Shown here: one piece after another, positions 12,895 to 33,802 of the stretch
Numbering within the stretch: position 1 is the first letter of the stretch
Layout of the letters: each line of letters begins with the position of its first letter
DNA from: Escherichia phage OliverMaurmann_Bas86
Length of the DNA: 64,000 nt
Direction: 5' to 3' (one strand)
Sequence record: PQ850622.1
Notes under the pieces: generated by a model
Told to the model about the DNA's origin: nothing
Database searches by the model: none
What the model saw: the letters and a program-made list of their open reading frames with translations, nothing else
Made by a program: the position numbers and the translations under genes

Positions 12895-12940
12895 GTCCTA
12901 TCTCTTATAATGTATATAGGAGGTAGGACATTTTTATTTA
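12895..12940 (+). terminator. Hairpin plus T-run whose loop carries the phage promoter motif
   Basis: GTCCTATCTC (12895-12904) pairs with GAGGTAGGAC (12920-12929), followed by ATTTTTATTT. The 15-nt loop is TTATAATGTATATAG. Confidence 0.5.
12908..12918 (+). promoter_or_regulatory. Candidate phage-sigma promoter element TAATGTATATA
   Basis: Lies 35 nt upstream of ATG 12953. The same 10-mer AATGTATATA recurs at 22900(+), 22835(-) and 33801(-). Confidence 0.55.
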
Positions 12941-12952
12941 TAAGGAGACGTT

Positions 12953-15900
12953 ATGGCTAATTTAAAATCGTGGGAAGAAGCTTCCAAAGCTCCTGCGTAT
13001 CTGAATGCCTCTCCAGAGCAACAGGCTCAAATGAGAGAACAATACAAGGCAGCAGGGGGCACTATTCCTGAGACTCAACCACAAGAGCAACCACAACAAG
13101 AAGAACGAGGTGTTATTGGGGAGTTTGCTCAAGGTGTGTCTAACGCTCTTCAATCAGGTGGTGCTAACATTGCAGCTAGTGCTGCTAAAGGTTTAGGTGG
13201 GCTGGTAGAGATTGGTGAAAACCTAACTGGTTCGGAAACAAGCTATGGTAAGCGCATTCAAGAGAACTCTAAGCAATTGCTGGAAGAACGCTTATCCAAG
13301 ATAGAAGATGGTTTTGGTAAAACAGCTGGTCAGTATGCTGGTGTTGCTGCTGATATTGGTTTGACAGTTGCAAACCCTGCTGTTGCTGCTGCTGTTATCG
13401 CAGCTCGTGAAACAGGTCGTGCTTATGCTGATCAAACTCCTAAAGAAGATGAAGATAAGTCAATCTTAGATGCTGCTCTTGTTGGTGGTGCTAACTACGC
13501 TGCTCAGAAGATACTTCCGGGCATGACTGGTACAGCTTCTACTACTCTAGGTCGTGTAGGACAAAGCGTAGCCTCTAACGCGGTTGCTGGTGCTAAGGGT
13601 GGTGCTATTGTTGGTGCTGCTGAAGCTCAGAACAAATATGGAGATGATACTACTCTAGCTAATGTCTTAGAAGGGGCTATTGAAGAAGGTGCACTCGGTG
13701 CCGCTTATGGTGGGGCGATTGGTGGGGTTCATGGGTTAATAAGTCGTCCTAGTCCTCAAGTGTTTGATCGTACTCCTGAGCATGTTAAGACTGACATTGC
13801 TGCTGAAGATGAGGCTATTCGTAAAGCTGCTAACGCTGATGAACTTCGTGAAGCCTATGCTAAAGCTGAGAATGCTAATGCTGCCTCTGCTTTAAACCTT
13901 CTGGATGAAAATGGTTTCCGAATCACAGATGCAGTTGCTATGGACTCTCCTGCTGTTCAACGTATATTAAATACAGATCAAAATCGTGCAGAGAAGGCTG
14001 CTACGGTTCAGAAAGATAGTTCTAACGTTCCCGGTCTTAATCCTTTAGCTTCTCCTAAGAAGACTCAAGGTAAAGCTTTTGCTGACAATGAGTACAACCA
14101 GAAACAAGCTGTGGCAATGAAAGATGCAATGGCTGACTACACTAAAGATAACACCAAAGCCCTTACTGATGTTCTAGACAATCTAGACCGAGAGTTAGTA
14201 GCTCTGAGAGCAAGTGGTGATTTTACTGGTAGTGCTATTGACATTAAAAACCGTACTCAAGCTGATCGTGATTTTATTGATGCTTATAAAACTTTTTACA
14301 GTGAAGCTAATCGTTTCAAAGCTCGTGATGGTGAAGACCTAAACAACTTCATTGATAAAGCTACTCAGTTGCAGAAGCTCTCTGAAAATGTTTCTCCAGA
14401 AATGAAGAAGGCCATTGGTGGATTAAAGAAACTAAAAGGTATGCCTGAAGGTTTTAACCCTATCCAAGATGCTTTCACTCTGAATAATACAGCTAAGTTC
14501 ATGAGTAACCAAGACCGTGGTTGGACCTCTCTGACTGATGACGGTTTTCGTGAAGCTCCGGCTCCTGTGTTAGTTAAGAATCCTCTCGGTGCAGCCAAGT
14601 ATGTACTTAACCGCTTTACTTCCGATCGTGCTCGTGCTCAACGTGAGAAGCAACAGTCAGCTAATAGCGAAGCTATCCGCTCTTTGGCTAGGGCTGATTT
14701 AGAAGTACAACGAGCTAGGACTCAGGCTGAAGAAGCAAGAGCAAAAATGGAAGAAGAACCAACCACAGAAGACATCAAATTCCGTACTCAAAATGATGCA
14801 CCTTCCGAACCGGTTCGTGAGGAGCCTTCTGCTACTACTGTGACAGAAGAAATTCCTTCCTCTCCAGCTCCAACTGAAACACCTCTTACTGCGAGGGATC
14901 TAGTTGCTCAAAGACGTGCTCTCCAACAAGCAGAGCTTAGACGTCAAGAAACTGAAGCTGCTCAGGCTCAAGAAAGTGCTACACCAGAACCTGAACCACA
15001 GCAAGAAGCTCTTACAGCTAGAGAATTAGTAGCTCAGCGTAGGGCTGTAGCAGAGGCTAAGAAACGTCAAGAGGCAGAGGAAGCAGAACGTGCTAAAGAA
15101 GCTCCTGAGGAGGCCGTAGAAGAGCCTAAAGAGAAACCTGAGCCATTACCTGCTCGTGCTCCTAAAGCTCCTGAGAAGGCTCCTGAGCCTGTTAAACCAT
15201 CACTCGGTGTAGAGCGTCTGGCTTCTATGTCAACTGCTGCCCGTCAGGCAACAAAAGATCGTGCTGACCGATTTGCTCGTTCTTTGTATTCGGCTGCTGC
15301 TAAAGCTAAAGCTACTGCGGAAAACTTCCTTTCTTATAAAGGAGACCCTAAAGAGCTTATGCGTCGTATCCGTCAGGAAGACCAAGCAAACAACACACAG
15401 CGTCATGAAGAGATGGCTAGAAATCAACTGGCTTCCCAGCAAGGCATTGCTTCTGCTAAATCTCAACATGTTCGTGCCTCTTTTGCTGATTGGGTAAAAG
15501 AACGTGGGTTGCCTTCTGATATCGCTACTAAAGCCTTACGGGCTGAAGAGAAAGGTTTAGGTGGGAACGTCACAAGCCTAGATTCACTGAAACGAAGAGC
15601 TGAACGTTTATATCAGAAACAGAGAGATGATGAATTTGACCGTCTCTATCGAGAGGCTCTGGAAGAGAATAAAGCGTTTGACAAGAAAGATGCTCCTAAA
15701 CTGGTAGATCAGAAGAAAGAACTTCAGGATGAAATTGGTACACTGCTTGATGCAGAACCTTTACGTCCTGCTCAGAAAGATGCTATGCGTAAGATCATGG
15801 AAGACTTTGTGGAGAGTAAGTTTAAATCTTCAGAGAAAGCTGGAAGGGTTGAGGCTTTGGAAGTTGGTCAAATGAAGGATGTGTGGGATGGGTTTATTAA

Positions 15901-17398
15901 TACCTATAACCGAGAAGTTAACATGTTCAACAAGGCTAACAAGAACTCTCAATACGAAGCAGCGGCTAAACACTTGCAAGCACGTCAAGAACGTCTTGAG
16001 ACGCTCCGTAACAGAGCTAAGGCTCGTAATGATGCCAAGGCAGCTATGGAAGCTGAAAAGCAGTCATTGGAAGCTATAGCGGCTCAGAAATCCGAGATGG
16101 AGAAGATGTTCAAAGAGTTGCCTGAAAGTGTCAGAGAAGCTCAGGAAGGTCGTACTTTGAAACAGCTTGCTGCTCACCACGATAAAAACTCTCCAGTACC
16201 ACCAGAGCGTTTCCGTAGTATTATTGAACGTATTCACAACGCTGAGAGTGATTACCTCGATCGCAAACGTCGTTTGACCGAAGCAGAGGAAGATGCTCGT
16301 GAGGCTAAGTGGAATAGGATGTATGAACAGGCTGAGGAAATGAACCGTAGGTTTGATATTGATTCTAGAGTGAAGAGAGACAAGGCTCTGAAAGAAGCTC
16401 AGGAACGAGAGAATGACCTAATGGCAGTTCAACGTCAACGTGATGACATTCATAAACGTTTAGTCAACACTCTGGAAGAGAAGGGGGTTTCTAGAGAGGA
16501 TGCTGAAGCGTATGCTGGTTCTTATATGGACAATCGGTATGCTTTGTTAGAGAAACCTATGACTCCAGTGGAACATCAGAATGCTCGTGCTCGTATCGAA
16601 TCTGACGTAGAGAAGTTTGTTAAGAAGTATGAAACAGCTACTCCAATCGAAAGAGAGATTGCTAAGGCAACTGGTGATGCAGATGGGAAAGCTTCTGACC
16701 TTGATGCAGAAACAGCAAAAGCTATCGAAGATGCTCGTAAAGTTGATTCTGATTTTAAGAAACTTTTAGATGAAGAGAAAGAAATGGAGAAGATTCGTTC
16801 GGCTCTACCTGAGGATGAAAGATCTCAGGCTAACTCTGATATTCTTGAAAGTATTAAGAAGCAGGAAGATGACTTTGCTAACAAAGCAGAGAAAGCTTTT
16901 ATTGAAGGGAAAGACTTGCAGGAGTTGGCGAGTGTTGCAGAGGTTCTAGATAGGGTTCATGGTGCAGATAAGGCTGGTAACAACCGTCGATTTGTACGTG
17001 CTCTACAGACTGCTGCTGAGAACAAGAAACGTTATGGAGATAATCCAGTGGCTTGGTTTAGTGCTGATGATTATTCTGCTATTGCGAAACTTGGTGCTGC
17101 TTCGGCAGGTGGTAACAAATCTCGAGCACTTGAGAAAATCTTTGGTTCTACAGCAGAACAAGCTAAAGGGAAACTTTTAGGGAGGGATGATGTAGCTAAG
17201 ATTAGACGTGTGATTGAAGCGAATCCTAATGCTAAGATTCCTTCTTACAAGACAACTACTCGACAAGAGTATTTACAGTTCTTGGAGAAGTATAATGATG
17301 AGGGAGAGTTGAAAGTCAAACGTGGTTCTCTGTCTGACAAGTTAGAAAGGGGTAAGCGTCAAGCTAAACTTCGTGTTAGAGTTCGAGCTAAGGAGTAA
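12953..17398 (+). CDS. Very large (1481 aa) internal virion/ejection-type protein
   Basis: Gly/Ala-rich hydrophobic N-part followed by a very long E/K/A/R coiled coil. Internal tandem repeat LTAR(D/E)LVAQRRA. Confidence 0.7.
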   Translation: MANLKSWEEASKAPAYLNASPEQQAQMREQYKAAGGTIPETQPQEQPQQEERGVIGEFAQGVSNALQSGGANIAASAAKGLGGLVEIGENLTGSETSYGKRIQENSKQLLEERLSKIEDGFGKTAGQYAGVAADIGLTVANPAVAAAVIAARETGRAYADQTPKEDEDKSILDAALVGGANYAAQKILPGMTGTASTTLGRVGQSVASNAVAGAKGGAIVGAAEAQNKYGDDTTLANVLEGAIEEGALGAAYGGAIGGVHGLISRPSPQVFDRTPEHVKTDIAAEDEAIRKAANADELREAYAKAENANAASALNLLDENGFRITDAVAMDSPAVQRILNTDQNRAEKAATVQKDSSNVPGLNPLASPKKTQGKAFADNEYNQKQAVAMKDAMADYTKDNTKALTDVLDNLDRELVALRASGDFTGSAIDIKNRTQADRDFIDAYKTFYSEANRFKARDGEDLNNFIDKATQLQKLSENVSPEMKKAIGGLKKLKGMPEGFNPIQDAFTLNNTAKFMSNQDRGWTSLTDDGFREAPAPVLVKNPLGAAKYVLNRFTSDRARAQREKQQSANSEAIRSLARADLEVQRARTQAEEARAKMEEEPTTEDIKFRTQNDAPSEPVREEPSATTVTEEIPSSPAPTETPLTARDLVAQRRALQQAELRRQETEAAQAQESATPEPEPQQEALTARELVAQRRAVAEAKKRQEAEEAERAKEAPEEAVEEPKEKPEPLPARAPKAPEKAPEPVKPSLGVERLASMSTAARQATKDRADRFARSLYSAAAKAKATAENFLSYKGDPKELMRRIRQEDQANNTQRHEEMARNQLASQQGIASAKSQHVRASFADWVKERGLPSDIATKALRAEEKGLGGNVTSLDSLKRRAERLYQKQRDDEFDRLYREALEENKAFDKKDAPKLVDQKKELQDEIGTLLDAEPLRPAQKDAMRKIMEDFVESKFKSSEKAGRVEALEVGQMKDVWDGFINTYNREVNMFNKANKNSQYEAAAKHLQARQERLETLRNRAKARNDAKAAMEAEKQSLEAIAAQKSEMEKMFKELPESVREAQEGRTLKQLAAHHDKNSPVPPERFRSIIERIHNAESDYLDRKRRLTEAEEDAREAKWNRMYEQAEEMNRRFDIDSRVKRDKALKEAQERENDLMAVQRQRDDIHKRLVNTLEEKGVSREDAEAYAGSYMDNRYALLEKPMTPVEHQNARARIESDVEKFVKKYETATPIEREIAKATGDADGKASDLDAETAKAIEDARKVDSDFKKLLDEEKEMEKIRSALPEDERSQANSDILESIKKQEDDFANKAEKAFIEGKDLQELASVAEVLDRVHGADKAGNNRRFVRALQTAAENKKRYGDNPVAWFSADDYSAIAKLGAASAGGNKSRALEKIFGSTAEQAKGKLLGRDDVAKIRRVIEANPNAKIPSYKTTTRQEYLQFLEKYNDEGELKVKRGSLSDKLERGKRQAKLRVRVRAKE

Positions 17399-17406
17399 AC
17401 AAGAAA

Positions 17407-17443
17407 AGCCCCCAACCTGAAAAGGAAGGGGGCTTCTTTATTT
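17407..17443. terminator. Bidirectional terminator between convergent operons
   Basis: AGCCCCC (17407-13) pairs with GGGGGCT (17428-34), flanked by an A run upstream and a T run downstream. Confidence 0.7.
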
Positions 17444-17495
17444 CTAGATGTTAGAATCCATCGAATTCATCATACATCCCAATTTTCTTCTTCAA

Positions 17496-17762: not shown

Positions 17763-17770
17763 TTGTTCTC

Positions 17771-18615: not shown

Positions 18616-18628
18616 TATAATATCCTTA

Positions 18629-19447: not shown

Positions 19448-20036
19448 AGAGATCTCTCCGTGTCTCTTCAATAATCCACTCTAAATCATCAACTGCCTCT
19501 TCTACAGAACGGTCATTAAAGAGGAGGTAGGTTGGTAGGTTTGTTCCTTCAATATAAGAACGGGAGTCCCCTTCAAAGGAGCAGCCATCTCGGAGAATCT
19601 GAACTACTCGAACATAGAAGTGTTTCTCTAGTTCTTCAACTTCAGCTTTGAACCCACCATCAGAGAAGACGATAACATCATTCTGTGATGGGATACGTTG
19701 TTGAATACTGCTAACAGCAAGTTTACCCATGCAGGTCTCACCAAACATAGGTTTCAGATAATCCTCACTAGTTGCAATCATCAAGTCTCGAACTGACTTA
19801 CCGCCCCATTCAGGACGGATATGTTCTTTCCACTCACGGTCGTTGTACAGCTCCATGAACTTATAAAGAGGGAGACCTAATGCAGCAGCAGCCACCCGAT
19901 ACATAGGCTCCTTAAAAGCCTTTACATGCGGTCTAAACTCAGTGTTACCAGCGGTCTTCTCTAACCAAGCATTAGCGATTGTATCTTTACCACAACCCGG
20001 AGGTCCATTTAGAATTACTACTAATGGTTTACTCAT
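19440..20036 (-). CDS. P-loop kinase (dNMP kinase-like)
   Basis: Walker A in LNGPPGCGKDT. Size and genomic context resemble phage dNMP kinases. Confidence 0.55.
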   Translation of the reverse strand: MSKPLVVILNGPPGCGKDTIANAWLEKTAGNTEFRPHVKAFKEPMYRVAAAALGLPLYKFMELYNDREWKEHIRPEWGGKSVRDLMIATSEDYLKPMFGETCMGKLAVSSIQQRIPSQNDVIVFSDGGFKAEVEELEKHFYVRVVQILRDGCSFEGDSRSYIEGTNLPTYLLFNDRSVEEAVDDLEWIIEETRRDLYV

Positions 20037-20686
20037 TATTGAATCATCCCTTGAAGATCTTCTTTATCAAAGTGCTTCTCTACTACCGCTTCATACAGAT
20101 CACGATTCTCCGAATAACGGCGATAGAAGGTTCCGTGTGAAATTCCCAGCTCTTGTTGGATGTGATCATGAGGAATACCGAGGAAGAGCATTGAGAACAT
20201 ACTTGCCATCTTGCGGTTTTCCATAATATCACTTAGGTCTTGGAAGAAGAAAAAGATTCTAGATTCCAAGAATGGGTCTCCAGTAGAATCATGCTTATCC
20301 ATAGCAATCTCTAAAGGACTTTCCCATGAATTCATCTCGGGAGGTCTAAACATATCAGCCTCTGGAATAGAATAGATACGTCTGTCTCCAACTGTCTGAC
20401 GATTAGAACGAATCGACCAGATGATATTCTTCACACGATAAGTCATGTGTTCAATATCTTTTTCATCGGTAAGCAGTAGTTCTTCTTGCTTTGCAAATAC
20501 AAAACGCCAAGAGTTCAGTAACACTTCCTGAGCAACATCCTCTGCTTCGTGATAATCTTTAATGTCGTACATAAAATACTTATGCACAACTTTCCAATTC
20601 TCTCGATAGAATTCATCGAAGGTTGGGTAGTACTTAATAGGTATGCCATGAATACGATAGCGTGTGGGTGTTGTCTTTTTCTTCAT
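20036..20686 (-). CDS. Phage sigma factor (ECF-like sigma-70 family)
   Basis: Region-2-like [14 protein letters not shown] and region-4 [21 protein letters not shown]. Resembles the phiEco32 sigma as I recall it. Confidence 0.75.
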
Positions 20687-20710: not shown

Positions 20711-20935
20711 TTAAACTACACAGAATAAATACATTGCTGTTTCAGGGGAAGGTATGTGGTCACTAGGATATCTAACCCTAATCCACTCATCATCTTCTGC
20801 TACATAATAAGCCCAATAAGACCCATTTTCATTAATAAAGAACTTGAAGGTACAACCAAAGATTTGGTTATTGTGTTCCCATACTGCATGAAACTGAGTA
20901 ACACCTTCTGGTATTGTAAGTTCCGCTCTGATCAT
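20711..20935 (-). CDS. Hypothetical protein
   Basis: 74-aa ORF, coupled (ATGA-type overlap) to its upstream neighbour. Confidence 0.5.
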   Translation of the reverse strand: MIRAELTIPEGVTQFHAVWEHNNQIFGCTFKFFINENGSYWAYYVAEDDEWIRVRYPSDHIPSPETAMYLFCVV

Positions 20936-21198
20936 TGTATTCCTCTCTCCTTTAGAGCTTTAAGCAAACCGTTGTGGTTAGCGGCACAGGTTGTATAATT
21001 GTCCTGATACCACTCGAGTGTTGTTGCAAGTGCTACTCCCTGTCCACTCTGAAGTAAAGGGAGGTCTACATCACATTCAGCTTTTAGGTTTGTTGGTAAG
21101 GGCATTAGCTGCCTGCTGTTGTCGCTCGTTGAACAAGCCATCAAACTAGAAGCGAGCAAAATCACCAAACAACTCTTTTGCTTTTTCTTTGTAAGCAT
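20932..21198 (-). CDS. Outer-membrane spanin (o-spanin) lipoprotein candidate
   Basis: ATG at 21198 behind aaggtg. MLTKKKQKSCLVILLASSLMAC contains the lipobox LMAC. The 5' end overlaps the 3' end of the HNH gene. Confidence 0.6.
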   Translation of the reverse strand: MLTKKKQKSCLVILLASSLMACSTSDNSRQLMPLPTNLKAECDVDLPLLQSGQGVALATTLEWYQDNYTTCAANHNGLLKALKERGIQ

Positions 21199-21631
21199 TT
21201 TCTGCACCTTCTTGAGTGCTATGATAACCAAGCCAAATTACTTTGTTTTGATATCCGATACGAGCACTCCATTTATTAATATCTGACCTGTATCCTACAC
21301 CTTTTATTCCAGTTAAAGAGTTCTTTTGAACTATTTTATTGGCATTGTTGAGGACAGGTGTTGCTTTTCTTAGATTGCTCCAAGAGTTATTAGACTTATC
21401 TAAATCTTTATGGTCTATTTGGAAATCGGGAATTTCTCCAGTTTTTATATACCAAGCAACTCGGTGAGCTTTGTATGTCTTTCTCTGAAAATTCAATGTT
21501 ACATAACCAGCTTTTGTTTTACACCCTGCAACCTTTCCTGCGAGTCTTGAGTTCCACTGAGCGCTCTTATCTTTAGAATGTTTCCAGTACAGAAGACCGG
21601 AAGCCTCGTCATAAGACAGATATTTAATTAA
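21146..21631 (-). CDS. HNH_3 + AP2-domain homing endonuclease (start unresolved)
   Basis: The frame is open to 21631 and encodes YDEASGLLYWKH..GYVTLNFQRKTYKAHRVAW..IDHKD..N, then an AP2-like GVGYR..WSARIGY. There is no in-frame ATG upstream of TTG 21496. Confidence 0.75.
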   Translation of the reverse strand, partial: LIKYLSYDEASGLLYWKHSKDKSAQWNSRLAGKVAGCKTKAGYVTLNFQRKTYKAHRVAWYIKTGEIPDFQIDHKDLDKSNNSWSNLRKATPVLNNANKIVQKNSLTGIKGVGYRSDINKWSARIGYQNKVIWLGYHSTQEGAENAYKEKAKELFGDFARF

Positions 21632-21969
21632 TTCTTTAATTTCAGTGCCTCCGCTGCTTGTTGTTGTCGTTCATTGAAAAGTCCTACATACTCATCACTA
21701 GCACACACATTGTAAAAAACTGGCTTAGTCTTTTCATAATGCATCTCTTTGTAAATAGTTTCCGTGTTCTTCTTCCAGTTAGATAAACCAGTCAGAACTT
21801 TCTGAGCCACTTCATCAGCAGCCTTAGCTCTCTCAACCTCAATCTCTTGCTGTTTCTTCTCTTGGTCAAGAGCATTACTATCACTTCTGTATTGCTCAAA
21901 CTTGACACCACCAAAGAAAACCAGAGCTGTGAAGATTAAAAAACCTATATTGTTTTGAAGCTTTTCCAT
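21628..21969 (-). CDS. Inner-membrane spanin (Rz-like i-spanin)
   Basis: ATG at 21969 behind ggag. N-terminal TMD IGFLIFTALVFFGG, then a coiled coil, then ..NVCASDEYVGLFNE, which is Rz-like. Confidence 0.7.
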   Translation of the reverse strand: MEKLQNNIGFLIFTALVFFGGVKFEQYRSDSNALDQEKKQQEIEVERAKAADEVAQKVLTGLSNWKKNTETIYKEMHYEKTKPVFYNVCASDEYVGLFNERQQQAAEALKLKN

Positions 21970-21981
21970 TTTAACTCCAAC

Positions 21982-22005
21982 GAAAAAAGCCACCCGAAGG
22001 TGGCT
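21982..22005 (-). terminator. Rho-independent terminator
   Basis: Minus strand reads GCCACC-ttcg-GGTGGC followed by TTTTTT. Confidence 0.8.
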
Positions 22006-22027: not shown

Positions 22028-22768
22028 TTAGAATGGGCTATCATCTTCTTCAAAGGTTGATTGCGGCTCTTCGTTAATGGTAGGAATACTTGGAGTAGCA
22101 TCTTTCTGTTCAGTGTCAGAAGCTTTAGTAACTTCACGACCAGCCAGAGGGATATTCTTAGCATCGTTAGCTTGAGTCAAGAGGTTACGTTGGAATGGGA
22201 AGATTGCTTGATAAGCAGCTAAGTTAGCGTCAGTCTCAGCATACGGTTCGAAGAAGATCAACTCACTACGAGGAGCACCTACCGCGTCACGATATTTAGT
22301 CGGGATTGGAGTGATGCTTTTAATGGAGTTTTTCTTCTCACCAGCTTTATTGGTGTAAGAGTTAACCAGAATGTTAACAGGCTGACCTAACAGCATATCT
22401 TTAAACCAACCCAAATCACCTTTCAGTGCTTGAACACTTGGGTCGATCATTTTAATCAGATTTAGAATACCAGAGTTCTTAGCTCGTGGGTTTACATCAA
22501 AAGATTTAAACTGGCAAGCAGGACGAGGGTCCAGAGGTTTGCCTTCATTATCAGTCCCTGTTGCATCTACGCCAATCAGCTCAAAAGCTAAGTCCATACG
22601 GAAAGCTGGGTTCTTAGGAGTAACTGCTTTGGTTTTAGGGTCAATCCAAGGGTCACGATTGTGAACACCCAAACCTACAACACGAACAATACGTGCTTCG
22701 TACTCACCATCAGGGATTACATCGTAGTTGGATTTACGGGATACAGACAGTTCAGGGATCATAGACAT
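22028..22768 (-). CDS. Single-stranded DNA-binding protein (T7 gp2.5-like)
   Basis: The acidic C-terminal tail ..FEEDDSPF, ending in an aromatic residue, is typical of phage SSBs. Located in the replication module. Confidence 0.7.
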   Translation of the reverse strand: MSMIPELSVSRKSNYDVIPDGEYEARIVRVVGLGVHNRDPWIDPKTKAVTPKNPAFRMDLAFELIGVDATGTDNEGKPLDPRPACQFKSFDVNPRAKNSGILNLIKMIDPSVQALKGDLGWFKDMLLGQPVNILVNSYTNKAGEKKNSIKSITPIPTKYRDAVGAPRSELIFFEPYAETDANLAAYQAIFPFQRNLLTQANDAKNIPLAGREVTKASDTEQKDATPSIPTINEEPQSTFEEDDSPF

Positions 22769-22825
22769 ATTAATATTTCCTTATATAGATTTAAGATTGT
22801 TGCTCTCTTTGAGCGGTTTGTATAC

Positions 22826-22836
22826 TATATACATTA
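22826..22836 (-). promoter_or_regulatory. Candidate phage-sigma promoter TAATGTATATA
   Basis: Lies about 60 nt upstream of SSB ATG 22768, in the loop of the TGTATA/TATACA inverted repeat (22819-22848). Confidence 0.55.
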
Positions 22837-22898
22837 CACTTATACAGATAAGGTTCTATTATACTATAACCTTTTTGGTAGTAGATAATGACAAGTAG

Positions 22899-22909
22899 TA
22901 ATGTATATA
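22899..22909 (+). promoter_or_regulatory. Same motif TAATGTATATA in divergent (plus) orientation
   Basis: Points away from SSB into an ORF-free, hairpin-rich 200 nt and then antisense to gene 23104..23742. Confidence 0.4.
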
Positions 22910-22998
22910 TGGTATAGCTAGTAAAGCTATTGCAGGCTTGTATATTGGGCAATCATTGTAACCCTTGCAAGTACCGAAGGGCAGGAGACACCTGCGAG

Positions 22999-23067
22999 AT
23001 AAAAATAGAGAATTAAGGAATCCTTGATTTAGGTTGTGGGGACTCCTAGGGACTTTGATTCTCTATT
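22999..23067 (-). terminator. Long-stem terminator-like structure
   Basis: A perfect 10-bp inverted repeat, AATAGAGAAT (23004-13) and ATTCTCTATT (23058-67), encloses smaller hairpins. On the minus strand it is followed by TTTTAT. Confidence 0.5.
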
Positions 23068-23103
23068 AAAATCAAAAGAAAACTTAACTTAAAACAATAA
23101 CTT

Positions 23104-23742
23104 CTACCATTCTAAAAGACCTTTAAAACTAGTTTGTTCTACTGTTCTCTGATAAGGTAAGTTAGATTCTGCTTGTTTGCTTAGCATCTCTTGTACTTTA
23201 TCAGTAATTGGATAATCTTTTTGTAATAAAGAAGCTACCCACTCTTTCCTACTTTCCAGCTCTTTTCTAATTTCTTGCAGAGACACAGCTCTGTAATCAA
23301 TTTGTTCCATAGAGGTACAAAAATATCTCCAATCTTTGATAGTAGAATTATGAGTATGAGCATAGATATTATACTTTCCTCTCATTTCATCAGAGTGAAT
23401 AGGGATATGAGTTACCCAAAATTCTTTGTATTTATAATCACCACTGATGTGTCTAAAGACTTTCATCATATCAGGTAGAAGTTCTAATCTATCATGGTTC
23501 CCTAAGACAAGATGTTTCTCTCCCTTTATTTCAGCGATAATATCAAGTGCATACTTCTCAAACACCCAGTCACCTGTAAAGAAAGTTTTATCACGTTTAG
23601 TAACATGATCAAACGCTGCTAAGATAGCTTTATCATGTTCTTCAATACTACTAAACTTCTTCCTAAAGTTACAGATATTACGATGGCCTAGGTGACCATC
23701 ACCTGCAAAATAAACTTCAGCCACTTTCGTATGTGTCCTCAT
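23104..23742 (-). CDS. Calcineurin-like metallophosphoesterase
   Basis: GDGHLGH, TGDW, GNHD and HTH motifs occur in the canonical order. Confidence 0.75.
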   Translation of the reverse strand: MRTHTKVAEVYFAGDGHLGHRNICNFRKKFSSIEEHDKAILAAFDHVTKRDKTFFTGDWVFEKYALDIIAEIKGEKHLVLGNHDRLELLPDMMKVFRHISGDYKYKEFWVTHIPIHSDEMRGKYNIYAHTHNSTIKDWRYFCTSMEQIDYRAVSLQEIRKELESRKEWVASLLQKDYPITDKVQEMLSKQAESNLPYQRTVEQTSFKGLLEW

Positions 23743-25156: not shown

Positions 25157-25158
25157 TA

Positions 25159-25723: not shown

Positions 25724-27571
25724 TTAGTGAGTGTGATTCCAGTTTAACCCAATCTTACAATCAGATGCAAGAGGACATTCCATTTTGAGGTATTCACCTG
25801 CTTTACGAACACACTCTTCAGTGAGGGTACGAAGTTTGTTAACATCGTCACGATGTACAGTGAACTGGCCTTCATCATGCATGTCAATAACCTTCGCACA
25901 ACGAACACCATCACGCTCAATCCATTTATTAAGGAATAGCATTGCATACTTCATAACAATCGCCCCAGCGCTCTGTAAGAGAGTGTTTAAGGCTTTATGA
26001 ACCATAACCTTTCCAGTTGCATCTCTTCTCATTGTAATACGACGTCCATCCACACCGTAGATGTATCCACTTTGTGCTTTCTCTGTCATACGTTCAATAA
26101 GAATTGCAATACAAGGATTCTCTGCTAAGAATCTTGCCCTCATGACAGCCCCTTCATCAGAGCCACCACCTACGATGCTTCCTAACTTAGCGTCACCAGC
26201 TCCGTAGTTGAATGCATAGATAAACGTTTTAGCATTATCACGAGTAGGAAGGCCAGCAAGTTTTTGGTTATGTGAGTGAATATCTCCTTCTAAAAGAATA
26301 TCTCTGTACATAACAGCAGAAGCTAGACCGCGTTCAGCTTCTCGTTTCTTAGCTGGGTTGTTTTCCTGCTCTGCTTCAGCGAGCATCTCACGACATTCTT
26401 TGATAAGGTAATGAGCAAGCATCCTCAGCTCAAGACCAGAGCCATCGTAACCTAAGAAGATTTCACGACCAGCAGGTACATAAAATTTATAAGCACCTAT
26501 TGGTTTGTCTTTCTTGCCCGGTTTTCCCATTTCGTAGATAATGTTAGTACCCTTTCGTACGTAACACCCATCAGGGATATGGTTGGTAATGATGAAAGGA
26601 TGGTTATGACTATCGTCTGAGGAATAGTCAGATTGAAAAAGACTGCGGCACTCGTGACCAAACAAACCGCGAGAAGGAATATTAACAACAATGCGATGTT
26701 TAAAACGAAATGTCGGAGTAGCGCAGCTATTAGCTTCGGCGGACAACTTACCATCTTTACGTTCCTTGTCGATAAGCCCGCTAATCAAACCTAGCCTGTG
26801 AGCCGCTACAACGCGTCTCTTAAGCAAACTTCCTACACCCCCTAGCTCACCCCCAAGCCCCTCTTCAAGAGTCTCCTCAAGGTTTGTAGGGGCTGTAGGC
26901 CACTTGTTTGATGTAGCCAAAGCTTTTTTGATTTCATCAAAGGTTACAGGCTTCTTCCTATTAGGGTTGAGACCTAAACCGCTGACATAGGCTTTCATAT
27001 AATTGACAGTGTGATAACGGAAGTGCTTATCCAAAAACCTTCGGATATCAGCATCTATCATCTCTGCTGTCTGTTTCTCTTTAGCGTTACCTCGAATCCA
27101 AGCAGAATACCATGCAGAGTATGTACCATACTTCTTCATAGCTTTACGAATTTCAAAAGTATTCCAAGGTTTCTTAGAATAATTCCACTCTGGAGGTATA
27201 AAACCTTCATCCATCAAGGCTTCTTTGATACGTGCATCTTTTGATGGGTCAAAGTCTACATACTCAACGCAAGTAAACGCCCCACCGATATCTTCTCTTT
27301 TAAGACCAACCCTATCACAATAGAGTTGAGGCCACTTCTGCAAAGCACCGGACTTCTTAAAAGGTTTAGAATAAGTTGAACCATCCACCCGCATTTTGGG
27401 GAGGAGAGGAATCAGTTCTTTATCAATATTGACAATAATCTCTTTGAGAAGATGAACAAACCACCGAGCGTTTCTTCTGTTGAAGTTGACTCCATGCTTC
27501 GCCTGTTTTGAGATTATATCAGCGACTGTCATCTCCGTTATGAAAGGTAACTTATCAGGGTTATCCATCAC
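25724..27571 (-). CDS. Family A DNA polymerase, polymerase domain only
   Basis: Motif A YDGSGLELRMLAHY, motif B RDNAKTFIYAFNYGAG, motif C VIDMHDEGQF. No exonuclease motifs in this ORF. Confidence 0.9.
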   Translation of the reverse strand: MMDNPDKLPFITEMTVADIISKQAKHGVNFNRRNARWFVHLLKEIIVNIDKELIPLLPKMRVDGSTYSKPFKKSGALQKWPQLYCDRVGLKREDIGGAFTCVEYVDFDPSKDARIKEALMDEGFIPPEWNYSKKPWNTFEIRKAMKKYGTYSAWYSAWIRGNAKEKQTAEMIDADIRRFLDKHFRYHTVNYMKAYVSGLGLNPNRKKPVTFDEIKKALATSNKWPTAPTNLEETLEEGLGGELGGVGSLLKRRVVAAHRLGLISGLIDKERKDGKLSAEANSCATPTFRFKHRIVVNIPSRGLFGHECRSLFQSDYSSDDSHNHPFIITNHIPDGCYVRKGTNIIYEMGKPGKKDKPIGAYKFYVPAGREIFLGYDGSGLELRMLAHYLIKECREMLAEAEQENNPAKKREAERGLASAVMYRDILLEGDIHSHNQKLAGLPTRDNAKTFIYAFNYGAGDAKLGSIVGGGSDEGAVMRARFLAENPCIAILIERMTEKAQSGYIYGVDGRRITMRRDATGKVMVHKALNTLLQSAGAIVMKYAMLFLNKWIERDGVRCAKVIDMHDEGQFTVHRDDVNKLRTLTEECVRKAGEYLKMECPLASDCKIGLNWNHTH

Positions 27572-28452: not shown

Positions 28453-28473
28453 ATTTATTACCTTAGATTATAT

Positions 28474-28505
28474 AAAAGAAAAGGCCACCCGAAATGGGTA
28501 GCCTT
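28474..28505 (-). terminator. Rho-independent terminator
   Basis: Minus strand reads GGCTACCC-atttc-GGGTGGCC followed by TTTTCTTTT. Confidence 0.8.
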
Positions 28506-28508
28506 ATA

Positions 28509-28823
28509 TTAACTAGAGCTTAAAGCTCCTTTGCGACCGCCTGCTGATTTTCCAGCACGATCTCCACTTTTGCCGCCGTTCGAGCGATTTCGAGAGACTG
28601 ATTCAACACGTAAGTTACTTGACGCATTAGAACCTCCCGACTTGATTGATCGTTTATGTCCAACGTCTTTACCTCGGACAGCAGCTTTTCCATCGCGCTT
28701 TTCAACGATGCGACGTGCACGGTGGCGCTGAGCATCTCCGCTCTTGCTACCAACACCTGTCTCCCCACGTTTGATTGCGGTACGTCTTTCTTGCTCATAA
28801 TCTCTTTTCGCCTTATCCGTCAT
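28509..28823 (-). CDS. Basic Gly/Ser/Arg/Lys-rich low-complexity protein
   Basis: Its codon style (CGT, GGT, GCT, GAT) matches the rest of the phage better than the overlapping alternative frame 28520..28798. Confidence 0.5.
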   Translation of the reverse strand: MTDKAKRDYEQERRTAIKRGETGVGSKSGDAQRHRARRIVEKRDGKAAVRGKDVGHKRSIKSGGSNASSNLRVESVSRNRSNGGKSGDRAGKSAGGRKGALSSS

Positions 28824-29193
28824 TGTTAGTTATCCTCTGATTGAAAGTGTGAATTGCGTGGCAGTTAGCGCAGAGGATTCTGCACTTCTTCATCTCTGCC
28901 TTCACTTGAGAAATTGATCTCGTGTGACCTTGAGATAGCTCAAAGGATTTTTCAGAGGGGTTAATATGGTCAAACTGGAGAGCAGAAGCGTGTTCTTTAT
29001 AGCCACACAGAGAGCATCCGTAAAAGGTTTTAACTCTTCTGATGAATACTAATTGTCGATTTCTTCTCTCTTCATTGTAAAGCCTACGCTTCTCCCTATT
29101 AGCTGGGTCCGCGTACCTGCACCTGTCTGAACAGTATTTTTGAAATACAAACCTCTTCTCAAATACTTCTTGACAAGTAGGACAAACATCCAT
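28813..29193 (-). CDS. HNH endonuclease with N-terminal zinc ribbon
   Basis: CPTC..CSDRC, then CSLCG..FDHINP..CANCH. Confidence 0.7.
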   Translation of the reverse strand: MDVCPTCQEVFEKRFVFQKYCSDRCRYADPANREKRRLYNEERRNRQLVFIRRVKTFYGCSLCGYKEHASALQFDHINPSEKSFELSQGHTRSISQVKAEMKKCRILCANCHAIHTFNQRITNNDG

Positions 29194-29268
29194 GTTACTA
29201 ACTCCTCCTTAAAATCCTTATAGGTAAGTACATTACATAGCATCAAGCACAGCTATCATATGCTACTT

Positions 29269-30006: not shown

Positions 30007-30184
30007 TTCCTACCTCCGTGTTCTTCATATAAGAAGCTACAGGATTTACACTCTGAGCAATGGATACCTATAACCTTAATTTCGACAAACTTCTTATTCT
30101 TCCCTTTAGTCGGGGAGCCTTTGGCAAGCTCCCGTATTACTTTCGAGTCCAAATGGAGAAGAGTTGATTCACATTTAAAACATT

Positions 30185-30505
30185 TCAGATTGATTTGTCC
30201 TTATGTAAACGGTATACTTCAGTAGTCATACAAGCTATACGCTCGTCATGTGGGAGATGCATACCAGTAGAGCCGTTCCATCCTTCGAACTCTGAATCAA
30301 AGAATCCAATAGGCTCGGGATACATCTCTTGCAAGGTGGTTAAGTCATCAGCCACTTGTTGCCACTTATCGTCAGACCAGATTGGGTCATCCAACCAATA
30401 ATACAAATAGGAGTGGATAAGCATCTGTGTTCTGTGTCGTTTAATCACTTCAGCAGGACTGATTTCATTTCCGTTACCAGTCCTAAATGTACTATCGTTG
30501 ATCAT
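30185..30505 (-). CDS. Hypothetical protein with LigA domain-Ia-like motif
   Basis: SYLYYWLDDPIWSDDKWQQVADDLTTLQEMYPE resembles YY-x-D-x-P-x-x-SD-x-x-Y-D..L..LE..P of NAD-ligase domain Ia. Confidence 0.5.
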   Translation of the reverse strand: MINDSTFRTGNGNEISPAEVIKRHRTQMLIHSYLYYWLDDPIWSDDKWQQVADDLTTLQEMYPEPIGFFDSEFEGWNGSTGMHLPHDERIACMTTEVYRLHKDKSI

Positions 30506-30691
30506 TTAGATAACCTTGTGCTCGTAGATGCTGGGGTTGAAATAATGCAACCAGTTTATATATTGTTTCTGTTCAAGGTAGTGTCTGCAATCATGACAAA
30601 AAGCATGACCCAAACCTGTTTCCTCGTTCAGCTTGAAGTTGATAAGAAGCTTCTGCTTTTGACAGAAGCTACATGTTTTGTATAAGTCCAC
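30506..30691 (-). CDS. Small Cys/His-rich protein
   Basis: CSFC..HAFCHDCRH pattern. Confidence 0.45.
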   Translation of the reverse strand: MDLYKTCSFCQKQKLLINFKLNEETGLGHAFCHDCRHYLEQKQYINWLHYFNPSIYEHKVI

Positions 30692-30699
30692 AGTTTTAC

Positions 30700-30834
30700 C
30701 TATTCATCTGAATTGTGACTACAACAATACTCACAAACTCCGCAGCAAGGACAAATCTCTACTGTAGGGTCGTAAGCATCATCAACTGTCATACCGCACC
30801 GTGTACAGAAAACATCATCATCGTTTTCTTCCAA
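30700..30834 (-). CDS. Possible 44-aa Cys-rich ORF (TTG start)
   Basis: ..FCTRCG..ICPCCGVCEYCC.. No ATG start. Weak call. Confidence 0.25.
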   Translation of the reverse strand: MEENDDDVFCTRCGMTVDDAYDPTVEICPCCGVCEYCCSHNSDE

Positions 30835-30836
30835 AA

Positions 30837-31484
30837 TTAACTCTCCAAAGTTTTCTTCAAAGCTGCCCATGAGATTGGATAGAGTTTAGCCATCTCTTCA
30901 TCTAATGACTGAGCAAATAGTCGAACTTCATATTGAGCATGGGATGATAGTCGTTGACGACACAATTCAAACCAGCCATACAAGCTACCAGTCCAGTACC
31001 AAGTAGTTACCATACCTTGAGGTAAAACAAATCTAGCTTGTTCAGGAGCTACGAACTTAATCAATTCGTCATAACTAGCAAGAGATGCCTCGTACGCAGA
31101 GTTAAACAAAGCTAAAGCTTTTGCCTCTTCCTCCCCTTCAAGAAGTATTCCAGAACCAGAATGTAGATCATCTGGACGGGAGAAGATTTCTTTAGGTATG
31201 AAAATATCCACTGCTCCATCTTTATATCTACGACTCATCTCGTTCCAAGAAAAACCAACTTGATGCTTCTGTAACTGTCGTGCAATTGCTATAGGAGCTT
31301 CGCATCTGAAGCTCGCTTGTGGGTGACGAAAAGGACTTACGTGTCGTTCCCGAGCTAGAAAATTTATTAGACGAGTGTCACTTTCTTTTAATTCTTCCCT
31401 TTCTACCCCCATAGTTACACGAGCAGCATTGACTACTGTAAGATCTGAACCGAAGTTATCAATTAATGAAGCTTTGATTGTCAT
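30837..31484 (-). CDS. thyX: ThyX-like flavin-dependent thymidylate synthase homolog with divergent signature
   Basis: ThyX-like ..RHVSPFRHP..QLQKHQVGFSWNEMSRRY. The canonical RHR-x7-S motif reads KHQ here. Confidence 0.8.
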   Translation of the reverse strand: MTIKASLIDNFGSDLTVVNAARVTMGVEREELKESDTRLINFLARERHVSPFRHPQASFRCEAPIAIARQLQKHQVGFSWNEMSRRYKDGAVDIFIPKEIFSRPDDLHSGSGILLEGEEEAKALALFNSAYEASLASYDELIKFVAPEQARFVLPQGMVTTWYWTGSLYGWFELCRQRLSSHAQYEVRLFAQSLDEEMAKLYPISWAALKKTLES

Positions 31485-31950
31485 TTATGTAAGTCTCCTT
31501 GACTTTATTATATTCCCTAGAGGCTTCTTCTATGGTTGAGAAGAGTCCTATGTGCTTAGATTTAAATACCGCCCGGTAAGCAATAGAGCCACTTTTCCTT
31601 CTATGGACAGTCACTCCAATCACTCCGGTTGATAAATTATTACTCTGAGCTACTTTGTTTAGGCCATTTCCTGATCTAGTAGTCCCCCTAAGATTCTCTC
31701 TTTTGTTGTTTATCCTGTTGCGGTCTATGTGATCTACTTCTTCAGGAAGCAATCCAGTGTCCCACCAGTAAGCAAGTCGATGAGCGTAGTATCTAGCACC
31801 TTTATAAACGATTCTCAAATACCCATTGGTATTTACAGAACCAGCTATAGACCCTTTGTGTCCTTTTCCATAAGTTTTAACCCATCGGAAATCTCCAGTC
31901 AAAGGGTCGTAATCAAGAGCTTCTTTTATTGACGGGTCAATATCATTCAT
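31459..31950 (-). CDS. HNH_3 + AP2-domain homing endonuclease
   Basis: YDPLTGDFRW..GYLRIVYKGARYYAHRLAYWW..VDHIDRNRINN, then GVTVHRR..YRAVF (AP2-like). Overlaps the thyX start by 26 nt. Confidence 0.8.
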   Translation of the reverse strand: MNDIDPSIKEALDYDPLTGDFRWVKTYGKGHKGSIAGSVNTNGYLRIVYKGARYYAHRLAYWWDTGLLPEEVDHIDRNRINNKRENLRGTTRSGNGLNKVAQSNNLSTGVIGVTVHRRKSGSIAYRAVFKSKHIGLFSTIEEASREYNKVKETYINDNQSFIN

Positions 31951-31965
31951 CCGTGAATACCCTTA

Positions 31966-32241
31966 TTATTTATTGCCTAGAGCTGTATCCAAAAATGCTT
32001 TCAGGTTTGCTTCAGTCTGCATACCGGAGAGGCTGTAGTGTGCACCACTGTTACGGTCAGGCACAACGAAAGCAGGGATACTTCGTACACCATACTTAAC
32101 AGCTTGTTCACGACCATCACCTTCAAGGATGTTAATCTCTTCCACTTCTACATCAAACTCCTTAACAACCTTCTCAAAGGTAGGAGCCATTGCTTTACAT
32201 GGAGCACATGAATTACTATAAAATTTAATTACTTTACTCAT
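31966..32241 (-). CDS. Thioredoxin
   Basis: FYSNSCAPCKAM contains the CxxC active site. ATG at 32241 behind aagga is preferred over the track start. Confidence 0.8.
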   Translation of the reverse strand: MSKVIKFYSNSCAPCKAMAPTFEKVVKEFDVEVEEINILEGDGREQAVKYGVRSIPAFVVPDRNSGAHYSLSGMQTEANLKAFLDTALGNK

Positions 32242-32242
32242 T

Positions 32243-32419
32243 CTATTCCTTGTTAATAAACAGATTGATATGGCGCTGAGTAGCAGGGACAACAATAAAA
32301 GATTTATACTGCCCTTTTGCTAAATCATGAGCAATCTTCTTTGTCTGACCAAGACCCATTACACAGCCACTAACAATAATGGCATGTGCTTGTAATTCTT
32401 CAGGGAGGTTTAATTTCAC
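32243..32419 (-). CDS. Possible 58-aa ORF (GTG start)
   Basis: aaggaatccaaaga precedes the GTG. Fills the gap between two genes. Confidence 0.35.
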   Translation of the reverse strand: MKLNLPEELQAHAIIVSGCVMGLGQTKKIAHDLAKGQYKSFIVVPATQRHINLFINKE

Positions 32420-32431
32420 TCTTTGGATTCC

Positions 32432-32617
32432 TTACAGCATAACAAGAACGATAATAAGAGGTAGTGTTATAGCAAAATGTACCAGAACAACACTACCTAG
32501 CTTGATAGCTTTAACATCCTCTTCTGCTGGGTTTTCTTTAATTGCTAAATTTCGAGCTTTATAGATAATAGTACCAACTATTAACGACCACACGGCCCAC
32601 ACAACCAATGAAATCAT
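32432..32617 (-). CDS. Small two-TMD membrane protein (paralog 1)
   Basis: MISLVVWAVWSLIVGTIIY..VLVHFAITLPLIIVLV. Confidence 0.5.
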   Translation of the reverse strand: MISLVVWAVWSLIVGTIIYKARNLAIKENPAEEDVKAIKLGSVVLVHFAITLPLIIVLVML

Positions 32618-32626
32618 ATCAAACCC

Positions 32627-32806
32627 TTATGCAGTCAGAAGGTGAAGCAGGAATGGGATAACAACAGCTACGACAACCATGATGGTTGATGCTGTTTGAA
32701 TCTCACCTTTCTTGTCAGGGGTTTCTTCAATAAGCTTACCAGAAGCCCAATAGATACCACCGCCAATAAAGATAGCCCAAATACCCCATACGATTGCTGA
32801 TAACAT
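32627..32806 (-). CDS. Small two-TMD membrane protein (paralog 2, 59 aa, below track cutoff)
   Basis: MLSAIVWGIWAIFIGGGIYWASGKLIEETPDKKGEIQTASTIMVVVAVVIPFLLHLLTA. RBS aagga. Confidence 0.5.
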   Translation of the reverse strand: MLSAIVWGIWAIFIGGGIYWASGKLIEETPDKKGEIQTASTIMVVVAVVIPFLLHLLTA

Positions 32807-32867
32807 ATATCTATATCCTTATAAATGAGTTCGCCCCACCTCGGGTTAGGAGACAGGGCGGAGGTTT

Positions 32868-33443
32868 TTAGTAAGACACATCACCACTTGAGTGGGACAT
32901 GTTGCTCTTGACGAAGTAACAGAACTTGCCAAGACCTTCATTAATTTCTTGAAGCATACTCTGGTCCACTGGATAGGTGCACAAGTCTGAATCAAACTCA
33001 TCCATCTTCTCAATGATACACATAAGAGTCATGCACATGTCGGAAAGCATACCGTCCATGTCGAGATCAGCGTTACCTTCTCGGAACCAAGCATGGCCTA
33101 AATAATTACTAGCAGTAGCATCCACTTTAACACAATGAAAGCGCATACGCTCTGCTATTCGGTCGCCTGCCTCACGAGCATAATCTTCTAGTTCATCGAA
33201 CATACCATGAACACCTTGGAAACCAGCTCCAGAGACGTTCCAGTGGTAGTTCTTTGCTTTGATGTGTAGAAGTTCAAGGTTAGCTTGCACACCACACAAG
33301 ATGTGTTCTAAGCTGTTACCGCTAATCAGTTTATTCATTCCCTCAAGACGAGAGATAGAAGAGTCAGTAGTAGAGAATGGGTTGCTAGAACCCACTCGTG
33401 TTAGTTCTGGTAAGTCGAAGACATTATTATGCATTAGGTGCAT
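32868..33443 (-). CDS. Dps/ferritin-like protein
   Basis: KAKNYHWNVSGAGFQGVHGMFDELEDYAREAGDRIAERM matches the Dps ferroxidase helix pattern HW-x-x-x-G..F..H..F-[DE]-E..D..AER. Confidence 0.75.
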   Translation of the reverse strand: MHLMHNNVFDLPELTRVGSSNPFSTTDSSISRLEGMNKLISGNSLEHILCGVQANLELLHIKAKNYHWNVSGAGFQGVHGMFDELEDYAREAGDRIAERMRFHCVKVDATASNYLGHAWFREGNADLDMDGMLSDMCMTLMCIIEKMDEFDSDLCTYPVDQSMLQEINEGLGKFCYFVKSNMSHSSGDVSY

Positions 33444-33774
33444 CCCCTTCTAAGTTAGTTGAATTAGCTACATTACGAGCAATGTTATCCATGACCTGCT
33501 GGGTAATAACAATGCAATTCTGTGGGTCTACAGACTTAGAACGCCCCATTTCAGGGTCATAAACCTTAACACGCTTGGCTGTTGAGCCAGTAACTTGCAA
33601 CACTTTGAGAAGATAACCTTGGTTTCCAATAGACCATGCAACAACATCACGATTCTTGATATAACGACCAAGCATATCACGATGATAGAACTGCTGCATA
33701 ACTTTAGCTTTGCTAATCTCTTCAGATGGCGGGGCCACTTTACTCAAATCTAACATAACTCTCTCCTGTTTCAT
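33427..33774 (-). CDS. Hypothetical protein
   Basis: 115-aa ORF downstream of promoter motif 33792-33802. Confidence 0.5.
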   Translation of the reverse strand: MKQERVMLDLSKVAPPSEEISKAKVMQQFYHRDMLGRYIKNRDVVAWSIGNQGYLLKVLQVTGSTAKRVKVYDPEMGRSKSVDPQNCIVITQQVMDNIARNVANSTNLEGDAPNA

Positions 33775-33791
33775 ACAATATTCTTATACTG

Positions 33792-33802
33792 TATATACAT
33801 TT
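33792..33802 (-). promoter_or_regulatory. Candidate phage-sigma promoter AAATGTATATA
   Basis: Lies 18-28 nt upstream of ATG 33774. Contains the 10-bp palindrome TGTATATACA. Confidence 0.5.

Follow-up and report, generated by a model that had tools for sequence, protein, structure and literature searches.

For a minimal phage sigma factor, the coliphage phiEco32 provides the reference system, and an open complex of that factor has now been solved by cryo-electron microscopy (cryo-EM). Six middle/late promoters of this phage, located before genes 6, 13, 26, 40, 58 and 68, have been mapped as dependent on the sigma factor, gp36; they share a single conserved element, tAATGTAtA, and their start sites lie 6-8 base pairs (bp) downstream of it (PMC8948821). 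The element takes the form TAATGTAgA in P6, TAATGTATA in P13, P26, P40 and P58, and aAATGTATA in P68 (PMC8948821 Table S3). In the open complex on P68, reported in 2025, AATGTA occupies positions -14 to -9; the N-terminal domain of gp36 contacts the bases -14A, -12T and -11G, and its C-terminal domain (CTD) contacts -37G and -34A (PMC12276001). A second phage protein, gp79, binds RNA polymerase (RNAP); it turns off transcription by sigma-70 and activates the promoters of gp36, a stimulation that has been shown for P26 and P68 (PMC12276001). Further, a positive loop of sigma expression has been noted for related phages. In this report, we consider the gp36-type promoters, and the unusual arrangements around two of them, in a stretch of 64,000 nucleotides (nt) from Escherichia phage OliverMaurmann_Bas86 (PQ850622.1). 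This full stretch is referred to as the window, and all coordinates are those of the window unless a different genome is named.

Sequence comparison identifies the window as that of a phiEco32-like (SU7/Bas87-type) coliphage. Between 12 and 24 kilobases (kb), its identity is 96.8% to Escherichia phage AnnaHegner_Bas87 and about 96% to SU7 (Suseptimavirus, Gordonclarkvirinae), and matches to this part are present in 98 records of E. coli/Shigella phages from the phiEco32 group. The identity to phiEco32 itself is about 77-80%; 71% of the window can be aligned to it, with a mean identity of 77%. The gene order is also that of phiEco32: rightward late structural genes extend to 17.4 kb, the genes from there to about 62 kb are middle and early ones and point leftward, and a short rightward block begins at 62 kb.

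We consider it likely that three propositions together best explain what is found here, namely that the recurring motif of the window marks gp36 promoters, that terminators and promoters are joined at the borders of operons, and that a predicted orphan promoter, which we call Pplus, may make a structured non-coding RNA. The identity of the motif is established phiEco32 biology, found again in a close relative. Two further features, a P26 embedded in a terminator-like hairpin and the orphan Pplus facing a conserved block, are real and conserved, and they are undescribed in the accessible literature.

Predicted promoters of the phage sigma factor

The exact 10-mer AATGTATATA occurs four times in the window, at 12909-12918 (+), 22826-22835 (-), 22900-22909 (+) and 33792-33801 (-), where 0.15 occurrences are expected; none of 100 shuffled sequences reached four. 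An earlier note on this DNA had called attention to these copies, and our count returned the same four positions. All of them are intergenic, as that note had held, both by the list of open reading frames (ORFs) and by the annotation of Bas87. Three are correctly oriented before genes, with 34 nt between the 10-mer and the start codon of a gene for a protein of 1481 amino acids (aa), 57 nt for the gene 40 homologue and 17 nt for ORF 33427-33774. The phiEco32 middle/late consensus that the note gave was also the right one, since tAATGTAtA is the sequence published for gp36-dependent promoters (PMC8948821).

A position-weight matrix was built from the published phiEco32 9-mers and run over the whole window, a check that the earlier note had proposed. 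Six sites scored at least 14 bits, at 12908 (+), 22836 (-), 22899 (+), 33802 (-), 44660 (-) and 63446 (+), and none fell between 12 and 14 bits. Four of the six correspond by homology to mapped promoters, namely P26, P40, P68 and P6, the last of which had been overlooked. In what follows, the predicted +1 is the seventh base after the 9-mer (the rule taken from PMC12276001). The P26 homologue, TAATGTATA at 12908-12916 (+), has flanks that align with those of phiEco32 P26 (26014); its predicted start, G12923, gives a 30-nt leader to the late gene for the 1481-aa protein (12953-17398). The P40 homologue, TAATGTATA at 22828-22836 (-), aligns with phiEco32 36640 (-), the P40 of PMC8948821 Table S3. 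From a predicted start at 22821, it would serve gene 40 (22028-22768) and the genes downstream as far as the sigma gene. The P68 homologue, GGTAGTAGATA-N11-AAATGTATA at 33794-33824 (-), is nearly identical to phiEco32 P68, the promoter of the cryo-EM structure; its predicted start is 33787, and it lies before a gene of 109 or 115 aa (33427-33756 or 33774). The P6 homologue, TAATGTAGA at 63446-63454 (+), has flanks matching phiEco32 1677, and the P6 sequence is given in PMC8948821 Table S3. P13 lies outside the window, to its left.

The machinery that would read these sites is conserved as well. A gene at 20036-20686 (-) encodes a 216-aa homologue of gp36 with 80% identity (PDB 9m7y chain F, E 3e-117), in which the DNA-contact residues E79, H80, Y83, R84, W90, S91, S94 and N95 and the Y/R pair of the CTD (186/187 in gp36) are all unchanged. 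A homologue of gp79 is found by tblastn at 39474-39713 (-), with 76% identity over 80 aa. Because P40 stands upstream of a run of genes that ends with the sigma gene, the arrangement for a positive loop is provided. These facts support the conclusion that the motif is a -10-like element, tAATGTAtA, read by host core RNAP with the phage gp36-type sigma factor and the assistance of gp79; promoter activity in this phage is what we infer by homology. The earlier note's assignment of the motif to the phage sigma factor thus gains from the homology of its positions to mapped phiEco32 promoters and from the conservation of the cognate sigma factor. Given the homologous flanks, the retained contact residues and the presence of gp79, this portion of our account is biology already known.

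It could be argued that the four copies reflect chance or the A+T-rich composition of intergenic DNA and have no promoter function. TATA-like words are indeed favored by A+T-rich spacers, and copies of the 9-mer with one mismatch show no enrichment in the window (27 against 19 expected). The exact 10-mer, present four times against an expectation of 0.15, behaves differently, the sites are homologous to promoters that were mapped experimentally in phiEco32, and the cognate sigma factor has been conserved. The published mapping contradicts an explanation by chance, which we regard as extremely improbable.

A predicted orphan promoter and the block that it faces

The site at 22899 (+) has no counterpart among the six published promoters. 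Pplus, as we define it, spans 22877-22907 (+) and consists of GGTAGTAGATA (22877-22887), an 11-nt spacer and TAATGTATA (22899-22907), with a predicted start at A22914. The pattern GGTAGTAGATA-N11-[T/A]AATGTATA is met exactly twice in the window, in Pplus and in P68, where 0.01 occurrences are expected. In both, GGTAGTAGATA covers positions -37 to -27, and its GGTA, at -37 to -34, includes the bases of P68 that the CTD of gp36 contacts. By our reading of the alignment, the promoters other than P68 and Pplus retain -34A and do not have -37G; thus the CTD-contacted feature of the -35 region is specific to this class.

Pplus and P40 form a divergent pair, which the earlier note had described together with a foldable stretch free of ORFs beyond the plus-strand copy. 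Both parts of this description were confirmed, and the pair is conserved: phiEco32 carries the same second copy at 36704 (+) of its own genome, 64 nt from P40. We inspected about 30 loci, representing 21 distinct versions. The 9-mer of Pplus is intact in phiEco32 and in all of these relatives save one metagenome contig, and the GGTAGTA core of the -35 block is invariant among relatives. The 11-nt spacer between the two blocks differs at 7 of its 11 positions between the window and phiEco32, and its length is constant. A functional bipartite promoter would be expected to leave just such a record, with invariant blocks joined by a variable spacer of fixed length. In three ES17-type loci (L004, L014 and L036), a 120-nt insertion has moved P40 and Pplus apart, to 182 nt instead of 63, and a 47-aa ORF is annotated there in ES17. 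Both promoters and the block beyond Pplus have been kept despite the insertion, and their function would therefore be independent of close back-to-back spacing. Pattern scans of metagenomes and viral contigs added few new variants, and two of their matches were due to chance. Pplus is, by prediction, a seventh member of the promoter family, of the P68 type, and it is probably active.

Downstream of Pplus lies a block of unusual conservation, at 22914-23067 (+), which we propose as a candidate non-coding transcript of about 155 nt. Its predicted parts are a 5' hairpin, H1 (22914-22930), a variable domain (about 22931-22975) and two more hairpins, H3 (22981-22995) and H5 (23004-23067). The block is 93.6% identical to its counterpart in phiEco32, and its core (22975-23068) is 96.8% identical; the corresponding values are 77% for the genome as a whole, 80.8% for gene 40, 74% for the sigma gene and 74% for the spacer between P40 and Pplus. 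When all 94-nt windows are ranked by their identity to phiEco32, the core falls in the top 1.2%, and the 64 kb contain only ten regions conserved to this degree. A 206-nt query comprising Pplus and the block found a match in all 98 of the related GenBank records, and among the 40 matches listed the region is almost always unannotated. We found no conserved ORF in the block; it contains only TTG-initiated frames of 20 and 28 aa, and the frame is broken among relatives by indels of +1, -2 and -1. The block is absent from the distant Grimontviridae 7-11, GAP52, Privateer and ECO319P1, in which the spacer before the gene 40 homologue is only 75-100 nt long. Thus, the element is confined to the phiEco32/SU7 clade.

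H1 (AUAGCU-AGUAA-AGCUAU) begins exactly at the predicted +1. It is represented by six haplotypes, the window type and AUAGCU/AGUUAU, AUAGCU/GGUUAU, AUAGUU/AACUAU, AUAGAU/UUCUAU and, in SR02, AGAGUUA/UAACUCU. All six retain the stem; two of its pairs have changed on both sides, and where variants form G-U pairs, the minus strand would have A-C mismatches instead. Only one of 500 shuffles attained the covariation score of H1. In ECBP2, ES17, EcK-vB and others, the variable domain is replaced, between the same flanking bases, by a different module of two hairpins, in which one compensatory pair is seen. H5 comprises 15+3+4 pairs, two of them G-U. It and H3 never vary, and the fold is thus neither supported nor contradicted at these hairpins. 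The block thus combines a predicted promoter of its own with the lack of a conserved ORF, and its 5' hairpin has two compensatory pairs and several G-U variants. It matches no family of Rfam 15 at gathering or permissive thresholds, the best hit in 22780-23140 being 6A RNA with 18 bits (gathering threshold 41, E 0.7).

How such a transcript might arise can be sketched. The gp36 holoenzyme, aided by gp79, would initiate at A22914 alongside P68, as part of the middle class. The product would be a structured non-coding RNA of about 155 nt, with its 5' end sealed by H1 and a stable body that ends at H5. Since the plus strand offers no U-run after H5 and no terminator further on, the 3' end would be formed by trimming back to H5, by Rho termination or by collision with leftward transcription. 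With respect to the leftward operon, which stops at 23104, this RNA would be antisense to the 3' untranslated end. The loops and bulges vary as little as the stems do, and this favors an RNA that binds a conserved partner over one with a purely antisense role; our working guess is a stable RNA with such a partner. An active Pplus and a stable RNA of about 155 nt, present throughout the clade, seemingly confined to it, belonging to no known family and acting on a host or phage partner or priming replication, make up a proposal that we advance tentatively. A discrete functional RNA from Pplus is possible on the same footing, and any particular function is much less assured. The activity of the promoter, the ends of the RNA and the function of the unit are all inferred from sequence.

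Several observations weigh against this proposal. Pplus is not among the six published promoters of the accessible literature, and the authors of the original mapping may have tested and dismissed the site. One metagenome relative, L022 (ERZ1034915 NODE-75, about 120 nt upstream of 9057), has TAATATATA at the position of Pplus. The base changed there is -11G, which gp36 reads, and the downstream block of this contig is intact; an error in assembly or a knock-down occurring in nature could account for the variant. Because most of the candidate RNA is invariant, only H1 and a single pair in the variable domain draw support from covariation; the remaining 22 pairs that were counted never vary. 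The fold of the middle part of the RNA differs between predictions. Both strands fold better than shuffled sequences, but the z-scores are modest and similar on the two strands (-2.6 plus, -3.0 minus). A terminator scan found no plus-strand terminator or U-run after H5 or further downstream, and UUUUU comes right after H5 when the minus strand is read, a possible leftward terminator. The RNA has no complementarity of more than 12 nt to the window, and blastn gave no match that would suggest a host target in 5,426 E. coli genomes.

The last-named hairpin suggests a different role for the block, in which H5 and UUUUUAUCUC form a leftward element that terminates or processes the operon ending at 23104 and insulates it from P40. 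The plus-strand motif would then be a by-product, or a weak promoter without a product that might raise the local concentration of holoenzyme or provide P40 with divergent supercoiling. On the minus strand a long hairpin does run directly into five U residues, that strand yields the z-score of -3.0, and a terminator before P40 would fit a pattern in which P6, P13 and P26 each have one just upstream. The terminator scan, however, called none at H5, where the base of the stem beside the U-run is A/U-rich and the "loop" exceeds 40 nt. Moreover, a leftward element leaves unexplained why a bipartite promoter with a variable spacer should be invariant, why the covariation of H1 involves G-U pairs that the minus strand could not form, and why near-identity extends over 94 nt, loops included. 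We consider it unlikely that this is the role of the block.

Another possibility is that Pplus is a replication promoter, whose transcript primes or activates an origin; the block would be origin DNA or pre-primer RNA, and the A+T-rich stretch beyond it the unwinding element. Orphan phage promoters are known at origins, the primary origin of T7 included; examples are phiOL/phiOR and phi1.1A/B of T7 and the middle-mode promoters at oriF and oriG of T4. Pplus, too, is phage-specific and has no gene to serve, and the genes around it at 22.9 kb include T7-like ones for replication, encoding DNA polymerase, primase/helicase and exonuclease. The DNA is conserved in loops and stems alike, 23050-23124 is 76-78% A+T, phiEco32 has an A+T-rich stretch of more than 100 nt after its block, and GGGACT occurs twice, 10 nt apart, in 23030-23050. 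At the T4 and T7 origins, however, the unwinding element directly follows the promoter, whereas the first 155 nt past the start of Pplus are structured and only 48-66% A+T. The A+T-rich DNA of the window begins only some 140 nt downstream and is short, the A+T-rich spacer before the next gene being about 35 nt. The covariation of H1 indicates selection on an RNA 5' hairpin, and no origin has been mapped for this phage group in the accessible literature. An origin at this site thus appears to us distinctly unlikely. The terminator, origin and RNA readings are not mutually exclusive, and use of both strands would explain the extreme conservation of the block.

The P26 junction, the other promoters and neighboring genes

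At 12.9 kb, a hairpin resembling an intrinsic terminator occupies 12895-12939 (+). It has 15 pairs (5 G-C) at 12895-12929, a 5-nt loop, ATGTA, and the tail ATTTTTATTT, and its folding energy is about -21 to -23 kcal/mol. The 9-mer of P26 lies at the apex, and the predicted start lies inside the right arm. The earlier note had seen a 10-bp hairpin here with the motif in its loop; the hairpin is real, and it is longer than was thought, with the 9-mer spanning the apex rather than being contained in the loop. The note's proposal that the structure stops transcripts from upstream and spares those begun at the motif is compatible with this anatomy and with the conservation of the hairpin in phiEco32. 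The phiEco32 version has five differences in the stem, all of which preserve pairing on the plus strand (as G-U or G-C) and two or three of which would be A-C mismatches on the minus strand. A pattern of this kind would arise by chance about 1 time in 20, and it lends modest support to selection on a plus-strand RNA hairpin.

RNA from the upstream 555-aa gene would fold the 15-bp hairpin, followed by the U-run, and stop. Of the right arm, RNA begun at G12923 would contain no more than the final 7 nt; it therefore could not form the hairpin and would continue into the 1481-aa gene. Terminator hairpins also stand before other promoters, 15 nt before P6 in the window and about 30 nt before P13 in phiEco32. 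The late promoters thus appear to be built as terminator-promoter junctions, of which P26 would be the limiting case, with both signals on the same bases. In the paper on SU10, terminators are given at the P6 and P13 junctions and none at the position of P26, and the overlap at P26 is unmentioned in the accessible literature.

P26 (window 12885-12893; phiEco32 about 25991-25999) and phiEco32 P13 (about 9078-9086) also share TAAGACCTA at -38 to -30. Promoters of this family have been described as single-element; this similarity, with that between P68 and Pplus, hints that each class has an upstream element of its own, TAAGACCTA in the late ones and GGTAGTAGATA in P68 and Pplus. At P6, the 9-mer begins 15 nt past a terminator hairpin (63412-63430 and a T-run) and ends 11 nt before ATG 63466. 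The predicted start, 63461, is already past the AGGAG and leaves a 5-nt leader without a Shine-Dalgarno sequence. Transcripts from P6 would be nearly leaderless, and read-through transcripts would retain the ribosome-binding site. After P68, the listed ORF opens with ATG 33774, and its annotated homologues (109 aa) begin at the second ATG, 33756. That codon has a GGAGAG ribosome-binding site, lies 35 nt from the 10-mer and would be preceded by a 31-nt leader counted from 33787.

The remaining site of high score, TAATGTAGA at 44660 (-), is absent from phiEco32 and is probably due to chance. Two weaker variants had been put forward in the earlier note as promoters, and neither is conserved. Before the sigma gene, TAATGTAAA at 20713 is replaced by TAATATAAA or TAATACAAA in Bas87, Bas88, TH34 and TH42 and has no counterpart in the phiEco32 clade; the base lost in these closest relatives is -11G, which is directly read in the cryo-EM structure. 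The other variant, TAATGTAC at 29235, is not the homologue of P58. As a 9-mer it is TAATGTACT at 29227-29235 (-), and the start of an inserted HNH endonuclease gene lies 33 nt downstream of it. Relatives have P58 at this place, with TAATGTATActccttag in the interval that separates their gene 58 homologue from the gene before it. The variant retains the AATGTA core and, by position alone, might be a weak substitute for P58. Flanked by the PhoH gene and the gene 58 homologue, the HNH endonuclease gene encodes 126 aa (28813-29193, -; PHROG 2255, E 1e-28); it extends over the start of the gene 58 homologue and replaces the P58 present in relatives. PGN6866 is alone in having an HNH insert of this kind (73% similar), and P58 is likewise missing there.

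Next to P40 and Pplus, the first 150 nt or so of gene 40 (22597-22745, -) are 92-97% identical to phiEco32, and identity falls to about 70-85% over the remainder of the gene; the window has only ten such islands in all. The label "SSB" (single-stranded-DNA-binding protein) that the earlier note had attached to this gene (22028-22768) could not be verified, as Pfam, PHROGs and PDB returned nothing and a single-sequence AlphaFold model was unusable (predicted local distance difference test, pLDDT, 38). The annotation of Bas87 divides the coding sequence of an Rz-like spanin into two joined segments with an HNH endonuclease gene between them (9186-10078 of that locus, L007). The spanin region of the window (about 20932-21993, -) has a Bas87-like layout, with ORFs at 20932-21231, 21146-21496 and 21628-21993, and the spanin is uninterrupted in Bas88. 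The interruption may be an intron or another mobile insertion in a lysis gene. Finally, Rfam and ARAGORN scans of the whole window returned only a tRNA-Arg at 52.4 kb. This tRNA gene (anticodon TCT; 52393-52470, -) belongs to the early region, and phiEco32 and SU7 have it likewise.

Relation to known systems

The closest described system is the set of gp36 promoters of phiEco32. The window has in common with it the 9-mer, the genome positions and flanks of the promoters, the contact residues of the sigma factor and the gp79 partner, and its variants of the 9-mer are the same as those of P26/P40, P68 and P6 in PMC8948821 Table S3. It differs in having no P58, owing to the HNH insertion, and in the attention that must be given to Pplus, which stands outside the published six, faces away from all neighboring genes and has no ORF. 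If Pplus is truly a seventh conserved promoter of the P68 type, the regulon of the sigma factor is widened from mRNAs to a non-coding product.

The origin promoters of T7 and T4 resemble Pplus in being phage-specific, of a class active at the onset of replication and without coding cargo, and in lying in a region of replication genes with A+T-rich DNA downstream. They differ in that, at Pplus, a structured, G+C-balanced and highly conserved segment of about 155 nt precedes the A+T-rich DNA. The small and non-coding RNAs that transcriptomics has revealed in phages such as PA5oct (PMC7318152) are, like our candidate, intergenic, free of ORFs, structured and provided with their own promoters. The candidate is set apart by standing outside the Rfam families, by lacking a canonical terminator and by a promoter that would be read by the phage sigma holoenzyme. 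It is short and precisely bounded, with a predicted start at 22914 and an end near 23067.

Lastly, the junctions at P6, P13 and P26 are like other terminator-promoter junctions between phage operons in that a hairpin and U-run come directly before the next promoter. P26 departs from that arrangement. There, the -10 element is the apex of the terminator-like hairpin, the predicted start falls in its right arm, and the two signals share 35 nt. P26 would thus be a compact example from nature of one 35-nt sequence that encodes terminator and promoter alike.

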